Origin: Candidatus Limnocylindrales bacterium
GTDB taxonomy: Bacteria; Moduliflexota; Moduliflexia; Moduliflexales; JAUQPW01
Direction: 5' to 3'
Length of the DNA: 64,000 nt
NCBI GenBank assembly: GCA_035559535.1
Contig: DATMBG010000033.1
Span: forward strand, 61,573 to 125,572
Part shown: piece by piece, positions 16,791 to 57,542 of the stretch
Layout: every line of letters starts with the position of its first letter
How positions within the stretch are numbered: the stretch's first letter is position 1
Made by a program: the position numbers and the translations under genes
Notes under the pieces: model-generated
Databases searched by the model: none
What the model was told of the DNA's origin: nothing
The model's input: the letters and a program-made list of their open reading frames with translations, nothing else

Positions 16791-18074
16791 TTAAGCCTTT
16801 TCTTCTCTAGGGTAGGTCTGTTTGACCAACTCTAGAGCCTCTTCACGCGTGGAGATTCTTCCTTCTAATTGAGCTTCTTCTACAAAGTTCAAGATTTCGC
16901 GAAAGATCGGACCTGGAACATATCCCATGGCAATGAGATCTTCCCCCCGTAATAAAGGGGGTGGGTTTAAAGCTTCTTTCCCTAAAAGAGCCAATTGGTC
17001 CTTACAAAATTCCCAATTTTCCAAACTTCTTTTACTTGAAATACTGTCCAGTCTGTGCAACTCCAGAAGATCCTGAAAATGTTCCCCTCGTAAAAAACGT
17101 TTGAGAGTACTCGGTCTCATGTTTTTTACATTCAGAAACTTGAGATGATCCCGGACCAACTGAAAGATTGTATCTTTCTCTTTATTTGAGAACTTCAATC
17201 TCTGGCAAATTTCCAGAGCAAGCTTCGCCCCAACCTCTGCATGACCATGAAATCGAATTCGGTCTTTGATTTTAAAAGTCACAGGTTTACCCACATCATG
17301 AAGAAGCACCCCCATAGCTAGCTCAGGAGTTGGATTTTGAAGATTTTCTAGCATCTTTAACGTGTGGGTCCAAACATCCCCTTCGGGATGAAATTCAGGA
17401 GGTTGAGGGACTCCCTTCATCCGTGAAACTTCGGGAAGAATATGGACCAGTAAGCCACTGTCTTGAAGAAGTTGAATCCCCATTGCCGCATTCCCTTCGG
17501 TCAGGATTTTTACCAGTTCATCCCGAATCCTCTCAGGACTTACCTCCTTGATTTTATAAGCAAGTTTTTGAACGGCGCAGAAGGTTTTTTCTTCGATCTG
17601 ATACCGATAGCGAGCCGCTAGTCGTACACTTCGTATCATACGTAGTTTATCTTCTTCGAATCGATCTTGAGGATCTCCAATAGCCCGAATAAGCTTCATC
17701 TGTATATCTTTTAAGCCGCCCACATAATCTATTACACGCTGTTCCCTTAAATCATACAACAGTCCGTTGATGGTAAAATCACGCCTTAACACATCTTCCT
17801 CTGCGTTTTTCCCCCGGAAGGTAGCGACCTCATAACTTTCATGGTTTAGAAGAACCTTCACAACACCAAACTGGGCCCCCACGGAAACTGTCCGTTTAAA
17901 TAACTGCATGATCTGCTCAGGAGTTGCAGTGGTAGCAACATCGTAGTCCTTAGGCTTAAGCCCCAGGATAAGATCTCTTACGCACCCCCCGGCCAGATAG
18001 GCTACAAAACCAGCGTCTGTCAGTTTTTTTACAATGAATTGGACGTGATCGGGTATCTCCATAAAGATCTTCAT
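16791..18074 (-). CDS. cca: CCA-adding tRNA nucleotidyltransferase with HD domain
   Basis: Pol-beta nucleotidyltransferase motif 'GGCVRDLILGLKPKDYDVATTATPEQ' and an HD-domain region 'HDVGK...FHGHAEVGA'. Start taken at the MKIFMEIP ATG; the ORF extends to 18110. Confidence 0.8.
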   Translation of the reverse strand: MKIFMEIPDHVQFIVKKLTDAGFVAYLAGGCVRDLILGLKPKDYDVATTATPEQIMQLFKRTVSVGAQFGVVKVLLNHESYEVATFRGKNAEEDVLRRDFTINGLLYDLREQRVIDYVGGLKDIQMKLIRAIGDPQDRFEEDKLRMIRSVRLAARYRYQIEEKTFCAVQKLAYKIKEVSPERIRDELVKILTEGNAAMGIQLLQDSGLLVHILPEVSRMKGVPQPPEFHPEGDVWTHTLKMLENLQNPTPELAMGVLLHDVGKPVTFKIKDRIRFHGHAEVGAKLALEICQRLKFSNKEKDTIFQLVRDHLKFLNVKNMRPSTLKRFLRGEHFQDLLELHRLDSISSKRSLENWEFCKDQLALLGKEALNPPPLLRGEDLIAMGYVPGPIFREILNFVEEAQLEGRISTREEALELVKQTYPREEKA

Positions 18075-18250
18075 ACTCTCAGGCAAAGTTATAAGCCGGT
18101 TTATTGTCAAAACATAGGTCTATTAAAACCCACAAAAAATCTTGACAATTTAATAATAATATTGCACTTCTGTAAGTATAAAAGATGTTTGTTAGACCTT
18201 CTTAATTTACACCCAAAATACTTTGCTTGAAAGCCTGGAGAGCATCACCT

Positions 18251-19624
18251 ATGAGAAGAGTATTAAAGTCCTCAGTTTTGAGTTTAGTACTGTGGGTAAT
18301 TTGTCTCTCTCTCTTTGTTAAAGTCCTAGAAGTAGAAGGTGCAGAAACACTCACCGTAACCAAAGAGGCGGAACTAAAATCTGCTCCACAAGCTGGAAGT
18401 AAACCAAAAACTGTTATTTTACGTAATACCAAGGTTGAATGGACGGGTAATCGAAAAGGTCCCTGGCTTGAAGTGAGATTACCCAGCGGCTTACAGGGAT
18501 GGATTCAGGAGAATTCGGTCTCGACTCCTAAATCTGTCATCCCGTCGACTCCGGCCAGAACACAACCCCCTCCAGAATCTGTAACCCCCTCTGACATTGA
18601 GGCCCCTAAACAACCGACTCCTGTAGACAACTTAGAGGAGTTAAAGAAAAAATACGAAGCGGAATTGGATCAATTTAAGCAGCTTTTACTTGAACGGCAA
18701 AATGAAATAAAAGCTAAAGATACCGAATTAAAATCCAAGGATGATACGATAGCTCAATTAAACCAGGAAATAGAAGCCCTTAAAACCCAACTTACCCGGT
18801 CTAATGAAGCAGGAAAAGGGGTTCAAGGAACCCTGGAGGAGGCTCAAAACAAGATAAAAGATTTGGAAAATCAATTATCCCAGATTCAAAAAACCTTATC
18901 CGATAAAACTAAAGAGGTTGAGACTTTATCGGCTCAAAATGCAAGTTTAAAACAACAGATAGCCGAAGGAGCATCCGGATCCAGTTGGTCTCTTTATTTA
19001 ATCCCTATTCTTTTGGGTCTCTTGATCGGACTGGCTGTTTACACTTTTCGATATCGTGTTCCCCGAGAAGCCATCCCAAAATCTGGAGCTCCATTCCAGG
19101 AGTTTGAAGGCCAGACCGAAAAAATAAAACCTTCTCTTACTCCAGATAAAATTCAGGGTCCAATGGATCAAAGTTCCTGGAAAGAGCTGGCTCAGACGAC
19201 AGGTGCTTTAGAAAAAGAGGAGCCGGCTAAAACTGTAAAGGGAGAAGTCGCCCCAACCTCTTACGAGAAAGAGGATCCCCGTACCCGGCGGATTCCATCT
19301 GAACCGGAGCCCAAAGCAGAACCTGTGCTCACCCGGGGTGGTGCAACCCAGAGTTTAAGCCCCTCTGATTCAGAAACAGAAGAACCTCAAGCCTTATCTG
19401 GAGAGCGATTCGATATACGTCTTACTAAAGTGGGTGATAGAAAAGATAAAGTGCTTCAAATGCTCTTTAAAGTTAAAGGTCTTGTTCGAAGCCCTGAAGA
19501 GTTGATCAATTCGGTGCCCTGTACCATTGCCAGAAACGTTGAAAAGTTCAATGCGGAGAAATTCCGCCACTACATGAACCGGGTTGGAGCGACCATCGAG
19601 CTGGTTAAATCGGAAGAAGAGTAA
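18251..19624 (+). CDS. Membrane-anchored protein: signal/SH3b domain, long coiled coil, TM helix, and C-terminal ribosomal L7/L12 C-terminal-domain-like module
   Basis: ATG at 18251 (MRRVLKSSVLSL...). SH3b-like 'VEWTGNRKGPWLEVRLPSGLQGWIQE'. Heptad-rich coiled coil (aa about 130-240). TM 'YLIPILLGLLIGLAVY'. C-terminal 'RFDIRLTKVGDRKDKVLQMLFKVKGLVRSPEELINSVPCTIARNVEKFNAEKFRHYMNRVGATIELV' aligns by eye to the L7/L12 C-terminal domain. Confidence 0.6.
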   Translation: MRRVLKSSVLSLVLWVICLSLFVKVLEVEGAETLTVTKEAELKSAPQAGSKPKTVILRNTKVEWTGNRKGPWLEVRLPSGLQGWIQENSVSTPKSVIPSTPARTQPPPESVTPSDIEAPKQPTPVDNLEELKKKYEAELDQFKQLLLERQNEIKAKDTELKSKDDTIAQLNQEIEALKTQLTRSNEAGKGVQGTLEEAQNKIKDLENQLSQIQKTLSDKTKEVETLSAQNASLKQQIAEGASGSSWSLYLIPILLGLLIGLAVYTFRYRVPREAIPKSGAPFQEFEGQTEKIKPSLTPDKIQGPMDQSSWKELAQTTGALEKEEPAKTVKGEVAPTSYEKEDPRTRRIPSEPEPKAEPVLTRGGATQSLSPSDSETEEPQALSGERFDIRLTKVGDRKDKVLQMLFKVKGLVRSPEELINSVPCTIARNVEKFNAEKFRHYMNRVGATIELVKSEEE

Positions 19625-56564: not shown

Positions 56565-57542
56565 CTAGATAGTAATAGGAGAAGGAGTGAAAGTTAAGAT
56601 AAAAAGAATTAAGGAGATCCATCCCAGGATTTTTCTCTTTCGATCTAAAGGTGTGTAGGGGTTAACAGGGGCCGGATGCCCGAGTCGAACCATCAAGAGG
56701 AGGATAAGAACCCATAAGAACCAGCCCGGCCAGCCTACAGTTTCTAAGAAGGAGAGCATGGGAGATTCCTCCACACCCCATATCTTCAAGATCATACCGT
56801 TTAATCCAAGAATTCCTAACAGGGTCAGGATCGGGATAATCACTTTAGGTAGTTTTTTATGCTTTTCTCTTCCGAACATGGCATAAATGATATGGCCACC
56901 GTCGAGTTGTCCTACGGGAATGAGATTGAGCGAAGTAACCAGAAGGCCGACCCATCCAGCAAGAGCCATAGGATGGAGGAAAATATCATAACCTTGGGGC
57001 AGATCCCCCAGGGCTAATTTACCTAGAAGAGAAAATAAGAGGGAAGAACCTAAGCTGATGAAACCGGAAGTATGAGCCGGAACTGGCTCAATTTTAGATA
57101 AATAGAGTCCGATCAGGGTAACCGGAATAGCCACCACTGCTCCGGCTAAGGGTCCGGCTACGCCTACATCGAAAAGAGCCCGTCGATCATAAAAGGGGGA
57201 ACGGATTTTAATTAAAGCCCCGAAAGTTCCTAAGAAAAAAAGGGGGGTTCCGTCTGGAAGATAGGGAGGTGCTGGAATAAAGTAAGGGAGCGTGGCCTTG
57301 ATCCCATGTTTTCTCGCCAGAAAATAATGACCGAATTCATGACTTAATAAAATAGCCAGCAGGGGAATCGAGTAAAAAAAACCATGGGCTGCTGTAGTGG
57401 TGAATACGGTCAGAATAAATAAGAGCACGTTGATCCATGGCCTGGGCCCTTTTTGGGCAGCTTCCAGGGTAACAGGAAAAGGACTTTCTCGCGCCGATTC
57501 TAAAAATCCATCTGAATTCAGGTCTAAGTCTCTTTCTCTCAT
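56565..57542 (-). CDS. M50-family (site-2-protease-like) membrane metalloprotease
   Basis: 'HEFGHYFLARKHGI' HExxH motif within a TM helix; polytopic membrane protein. Confidence 0.7.
   Translation of the reverse strand: MRERDLDLNSDGFLESARESPFPVTLEAAQKGPRPWINVLLFILTVFTTTAAHGFFYSIPLLAILLSHEFGHYFLARKHGIKATLPYFIPAPPYLPDGTPLFFLGTFGALIKIRSPFYDRRALFDVGVAGPLAGAVVAIPVTLIGLYLSKIEPVPAHTSGFISLGSSLLFSLLGKLALGDLPQGYDIFLHPMALAGWVGLLVTSLNLIPVGQLDGGHIIYAMFGREKHKKLPKVIIPILTLLGILGLNGMILKIWGVEESPMLSFLETVGWPGWFLWVLILLLMVRLGHPAPVNPYTPLDRKRKILGWISLILFILTFTPSPITI

Follow-up and report, generated by a model that had tools for sequence, protein, structure and literature searches.

The gene described here raises the question why a domain resembling part of the ribosomal stalk should form the end of a membrane protein, and what it could bind there. 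[quoted passage not shown] In the stretch of 64,000 nucleotides analysed here (the window), the coding sequence 18251..19624 on the plus strand encodes a protein of 457 amino acids, followed by a stop codon, which we describe as an envelope protein that resembles YgiM and carries an L12-CTD-like domain in the cytoplasm. The protein is composed of a signal or anchor helix, a bacterial SH3 (SH3b) domain, a heptad coiled coil, a transmembrane (TM) helix, a disordered linker and a C-terminal domain of about 68 residues, in this order, and contains all four modules (SH3b, coiled coil, TM helix and L7/L12 C-terminal-like domain) that had been named in a preliminary description of this DNA. In the list of open reading frames, a longer frame (18227..19624) opens at a TTG codon, with an in-frame ATG at 18251. 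The ATG is likely to be the start, because a Shine-Dalgarno-like motif, GGAGAG (18237..18242, plus strand), is read from the sequence 8 nt 5' of it and because the homologues and an identical 457-residue protein in the public databases (P0001, HWP47645.1) begin there. Inspection of the sequence ahead of the TTG revealed no Shine-Dalgarno-like motif, and scans for promoter and terminator consensus sequences around the gene gave sites no more frequent than in shuffled sequence. All residue numbers refer to the 457-residue protein; residues 395-465 of the preliminary description, which were counted from the TTG, correspond to residues 387-457. The full-length AF2 model used below was computed from a 7-sequence alignment and has a mean pLDDT of 60, with low confidence outside the helices and the C-terminal domain.

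The C-terminal domain (19406..19609, plus strand; residues 386-453, followed by an acidic tail, KSEEE) has the C-terminal fold of ribosomal L7/L12 and is a genuine, although diverged, copy of it. Residues 387-451 match the Pfam family PF00542 over profile positions 1-66 of 67 (E 1.7e-6), and the score of 28.7 bits lies above the gathering score of 25.9, which makes the segment a member at the domain level. The best sequence matches in the PDB are all bL12 proteins (top match 8rdw_D, E 2.4e-5), a profile-profile comparison with an alignment of bL12 C-terminal domains gave a probability of 98.9% (E 2e-17), and the predicted fold, b-a-a-b-a-b, superposes on solved bL12 C-terminal domains. The likeness proposed earlier has thus held: the similarity in sequence reaches significance and the structure prediction gives the fold of the L12 C-terminal domain, the opposite of the two outcomes that had been named beforehand as speaking against it. 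With about 80-97% identity where the whole protein shows 48-52%, the domain is the most conserved segment, which points to strong selection on it. In NCBI and IMG the protein carries the name 'ribosomal protein L7/L12', but that it is the genuine ribosomal bL12 is almost certainly wrong and is refuted by the architecture: the 457 residues include a signal helix, an SH3b domain, a coiled coil and a TM helix, the L12 N-terminal (L10-binding) domain is absent from the Pfam matches, the ribosomal model TIGR00855 is matched with a score of 29.1 against a cutoff of 84.4 and only at model positions 57-124, and the factor-contact residues are replaced (see below). The public name is therefore wrong and would distort counts of marker genes or ribosomal proteins in metagenome-assembled genomes. 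Very improbable, too, is a ClpS-like adaptor, in which the fold shared by ClpS and L12 would serve at the membrane to bind either N-degron peptides or a Clp ATPase; structural alignments gave 9-16% identity to ClpS versus 21-29% to bL12, all sequence and profile matches are to bL12, and no ClpS family appeared among the Pfam matches down to an E value of about 0.04.

The other end of the protein starts with an N-terminal signal peptide or signal anchor (18251..18340, plus strand; residues 1-30), which has a hydrophobic core at residues 4-22 in a hydrophobicity scan and for which AF2 predicts a helix at residues 2-29. In the narrow family to which the protein belongs, A31 and E32 are invariant and G30 is nearly so, and VEG|AE is a possible signal peptidase I site according to the -3/-1 rule. 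The extracytoplasmic SH3b domain (18371..18511, plus strand; residues 41-87) matches PF08239 with an E value of 6.4e-6 and 26.7 bits, just below the cutoff of 27, which the SH3b domains of relatives clearly exceed (30-45 bits); beta strands are predicted by AF2 at residues 54-86. A disordered spacer rich in proline and threonine (18527..18622, plus strand; residues 93-124; pLDDT below 50, without secondary structure), the length of which differs between homologues, leads to the coiled coil (18620..18973, plus strand; residues 124-241). The latter consists of two helices, residues 124-186 and 192-241, with an AF2 pLDDT of about 80-90. Their heptad positions a and d have a hydrophobic occupancy of 0.67-0.79 versus 0.11-0.16 at the other positions, a difference matched by 3 of 2000 and 0 of 2000 shuffled sequences. 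A defence role suggested by PADLOC matches (LmuB, JetC and similar) was rejected, as all of these fall on residues 114-244 and are coiled-coil artefacts.

The transmembrane helix (18980..19057, plus strand; residues 244-269, core 248-266) has a hydrophobicity score of 2.27, agrees with an AF2 helix at residues 244-269 and is followed by RYRVPRE. Because the 15 residues C-terminal of the helix have a net charge of +3 and the 15 residues before it a net charge of 0, the C-terminus is placed in the cytoplasm, and the topology predicted from hydrophobicity, AF2 helices and charge brings the L12-like domain to the side of the membrane on which an interaction with translation factors, as suggested earlier, would have to occur. 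Since LpxA and an AsmA-family protein are also encoded in the window, the organism has an outer membrane and a periplasm. The protein is bitopic and spans the envelope, with the SH3b domain and the coiled coil (about 118 residues) outside, one TM helix, and a tether and the domain of L12-CTD fold inside. The cytoplasmic tether (19058..19399, plus strand; residues 270-383, about 115 residues) is disordered (pLDDT below 50), contains 13% proline and is only mildly acidic, with 21 D+E versus 15 K+R. Poorly conserved in its remaining parts, it harbours a conserved linear motif, TRRIPSEPE (19283..19309, plus strand; residues 345-353), in which T345, R346, R347, I348, E351 and E353 are invariant in all members of the narrow family (7/7) and of which the TRRI part is restricted to this family.

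The combination of domains had been regarded as unusual and is less unique than supposed, as about 20 further clusters at 50% identity, all of longer proteins, share the architecture (the long SH3b-coiled coil-TM family). Long relatives, which occur for example in Moduliflexota and include GAK51602.1 of Candidatus Moduliflexus flocculans and PID57801.1 of candidate division KSB3, have the same domain order and topology, but comprise 670-865 residues compared to 457 here, and their tethers (five examined) are 412-530 residues long, with 28-38% D+E and EEIEE-type repeats. Their C-terminal domain is, unlike the one described here, not detected by Pfam; an hhalign comparison of the C-terminal domains of the narrow and the long family gave 99.5% (E 2e-22). 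In the members of a third, N-terminal family, a cytoplasmic L12-like domain comes first and is followed by a TM segment and a C-terminal domain, FGE-sulfatase-like in several members, which would be extracytoplasmic where the TM segment intervenes. The narrow, long and N-terminal families form a non-ribosomal clade with 31-38% identity among themselves and 26-32% identity to bL12, and share a signature of L72, K74, G77, L78, a one-residue deletion, P83 and P91 (bL12 numbering). A profile scan of contigs with the family alignment added a single further genome, an unclassified MAG, and a metagenome scan with the long-family alignment added one locus. In the literature on Ribosomal_L12/PF00542, the L12 C-terminal domain and L12-like proteins, we found no work devoted to L12-like proteins that are membrane-bound or non-ribosomal, and the sole mention of such a fusion is one orthocaspase fusion in a domain table.

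The outer half of the protein is YgiM-like (TIGR04211-like) as judged from profiles and domain order. TIGR04211 ('SH3_and_anchor') is its top NCBIfam match, with 42.8 bits and an E value of 4.4e-11, which is under the membership cutoff of 65; E. coli YgiM reaches 178.7 bits. The same model tops the NCBIfam matches in five of six relatives tested (25-51 bits) and is collinear with them over the SH3 domain and the coiled coil, and the coiled coil of the window protein aligns with the coiled-coil and anchor part of the model. Signal peptide, SH3b domain, coiled coil and single TM helix are common to both proteins in the same order, but YgiM is tail-anchored, with a short basic tail of 11 residues past the TM helix, whereas about 190 more cytoplasmic residues follow here. 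Because BLASTP against E. coli YgiM gave only a weak match confined to the coiled coil (E 6e-4), the link to YgiM rests on the profile match, the architecture and the synteny with cca. In E. coli, ygiM and cca form an operon (PMC5324740); cca adjoins the gene here as well, but is divergently transcribed rather than co-directional. The neighbouring CCA-adding enzyme homologue (16791..18110, minus strand; Pfam PolyA_pol, PolyA_pol_RNAbd, HD and tRNA_NucTran2_2) shows 34% identity to E. coli Cca (E 2e-44), and the adjacency is retained in the loci L001, L004 and L005. No operon partner was found in any of the narrow-family loci, in all of which the gene is flanked by a divergent and a convergent gene. 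In the long family, a TM2-domain gene lies directly upstream in three of three loci and cca is adjacent in none of the three; in the window, neither a TM2-domain gene nor a true rplL was found. An AlaX-like gene downstream of the Moduliflexus homologue was considered as part of a recurring tRNA theme and discarded, because a second locus does not share it. Papers on YgiM itself treat it only as a model for tail anchoring or as the target of an sRNA, and none assigns it a native function.

What the C-terminal domain might bind can be approached through the residues by which bL12 touches its factors, which are reported to be V66-V68, K70, L80 and E82 for contacts with EF-G and other factors (PMC5887453, citing Helgstrand 2007 and Nechifor 2007). 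The counterparts of V66-V68 and K70 are D399, K400, V401 and Q403, the position of L80 corresponds to a one-residue deletion in the loop (or to V412), E82 is replaced by S414, and R/K73 and K84, which are invariant in bL12, by F406 and E416, so that of all these contact and signature positions only V68 is retained, as V401. In the clade as a whole, V66 is replaced by D/E, K70 by Q/H, R73 by S/F, E82 by S/T/A and K84 by E/Q, the GLGL loop is one residue shorter, and the replacements are fixed across 40 members. Where L12 domains occur in tandem and are fused to TIR or caspase domains, by contrast, the bL12 signature is kept at 61-100%, so that the loss seen in the clade is specific rather than a matter of simple drift. 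Column entropy within the clade is lowest in the loop and helix 5, as in bL12, and the face formed by helix 4, the loop and helix 5 is still the best-conserved region, with residues differing from those of bL12.

These data bear on the earlier suggestion that the domain binds translational GTPases or imitates the stalk. As a membrane-tethered mimic of the ribosomal stalk, the protein would sequester or concentrate GTPases such as EF-G, EF-Tu, IF2, RF3, LepA, BipA or Obg. True homology and a common fold with the bL12 C-terminal domain are in line with such a role, as are the cytoplasmic location on a long flexible tether reminiscent of the bL12 hinge, the conservation of the same helix 4/helix 5 region, the retention of K65 as K/R and of the hydrophobic V68 and I69 (here V401 and L402), and the position of one long-family gene downstream of obg-rsfS-rlmH on the same strand. 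However, this neighbourhood is missing at the other two long-family loci, and five contact or signature positions at which the bL12 set shows no substitutions or only conservative ones carry other residues here (K70, R/K73, L80 or G79, E/D82 and K84), including a change from basic to E/Q at K84, while the hydrophobic V66 has become acidic. The specificity of this loss, with the signature kept in the TIR- and caspase-fused domains, also argues against the mimic, and the core domain is basic, with a net charge of +7, whereas the E. coli bL12 C-terminal domain is slightly acidic by our own count of its sequence. At the residue level the earlier suggestion is thus unsupported throughout the clade, and we regard a stalk mimic as unlikely. 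The loss of these residues does not prove that GTPase binding has been lost; a co-evolved interface is possible. Quite unlikely is also that the L12-like domain, despite its altered surface, is a docking site at the membrane, be it for a GTPase (translational or ribosome-associated) or for the factor-binding site of the ribosome. If this were true, an envelope or peptidoglycan cue received by the SH3b domain and the coiled coil would be coupled to local sequestration or delivery of translation factors, and the protein would represent an extraribosomal 'stalk' at the inner membrane.

For the function of the protein as a whole we favour, with about even chances of being right, a tether similar in design to HubP/FimV, which has its anchor on the outer side of the membrane and presents an adaptor domain to a partner in the cytoplasm. 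The signal or anchor helix exports the SH3b domain and the heptad coiled coil, and the TM helix returns the chain to the cytoplasm. The SH3b domain and the coiled coil, the latter as a putative oligomer deduced solely from the heptad pattern, might fix the protein to the cell wall, the binding of which is assumed from the domain class, or to another ligand in the envelope. The flexible tether would let the L12-like domain search the membrane-proximal cytoplasm for its partner, as the hinge of bL12 does with its C-terminal domain, and the captured protein would thereby be enriched or held in place at the membrane. Since other residues stand at the factor contacts, this partner would most likely not be a translational GTPase, at least not one bound in the way that is canonical for bL12. 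The L12 fold has been reused outside the ribosome as the cytoplasmic end of an envelope-spanning YgiM-like protein, in a distinct and strongly conserved clade and with a rebuilt binding face. Identification of the partner would allow a function to be assigned to a family spread over several candidate phyla and would reveal what else the L12 fold recognises, and it might provide a lead on what YgiM-type proteins do and how they are linked to cca.

An alternative would be a one-component transmembrane signalling or sequestration device of the anti-sigma type, in which the SH3b domain and the coiled coil sense an envelope cue and the L12-like domain holds a regulator that is freed by a conformational change or by regulated proteolysis. 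The architecture resembles that of single-pass anti-sigma factors, and the arrangement is mirrored by the N-terminal sister clade, with its L12-like domain, TM segment and, in several members, FGE-sulfatase-like C-terminal domain; FGE-sulfatase is a common sensor-type module. The window also contains a gene for an M50 site-2-type protease (56565-57542), but far away from the gene described here and without a specific link to it. On the other hand, none of the loci examined has a neighbouring gene for a sigma factor or a transcription factor, the long acidic repeat tethers of the relatives suit a scaffold better than a switch, and we know of nothing about the L12 fold that would suggest regulator binding, so that we assign only a small probability to such a device.

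The preferred reading as an envelope-anchored tether has a parallel in the polar hub proteins HubP/FimV, in which a domain that binds the wall in the periplasm is combined with a TM segment, an acidic region in the cytoplasm and an interaction domain at the C-terminus (PMC12918733). On that outline, the protein described here and its long relatives with acidic tethers follow the same design logic, but without homology: LysM stands there in place of SH3b and the FimV TPR domain in place of the L12-like domain, and neither LysM nor FimV domains are among the Pfam matches of the protein. Two further differences are the additional periplasmic coiled coil and, in the narrow family, a tether that is mildly acidic, unlike that of HubP.

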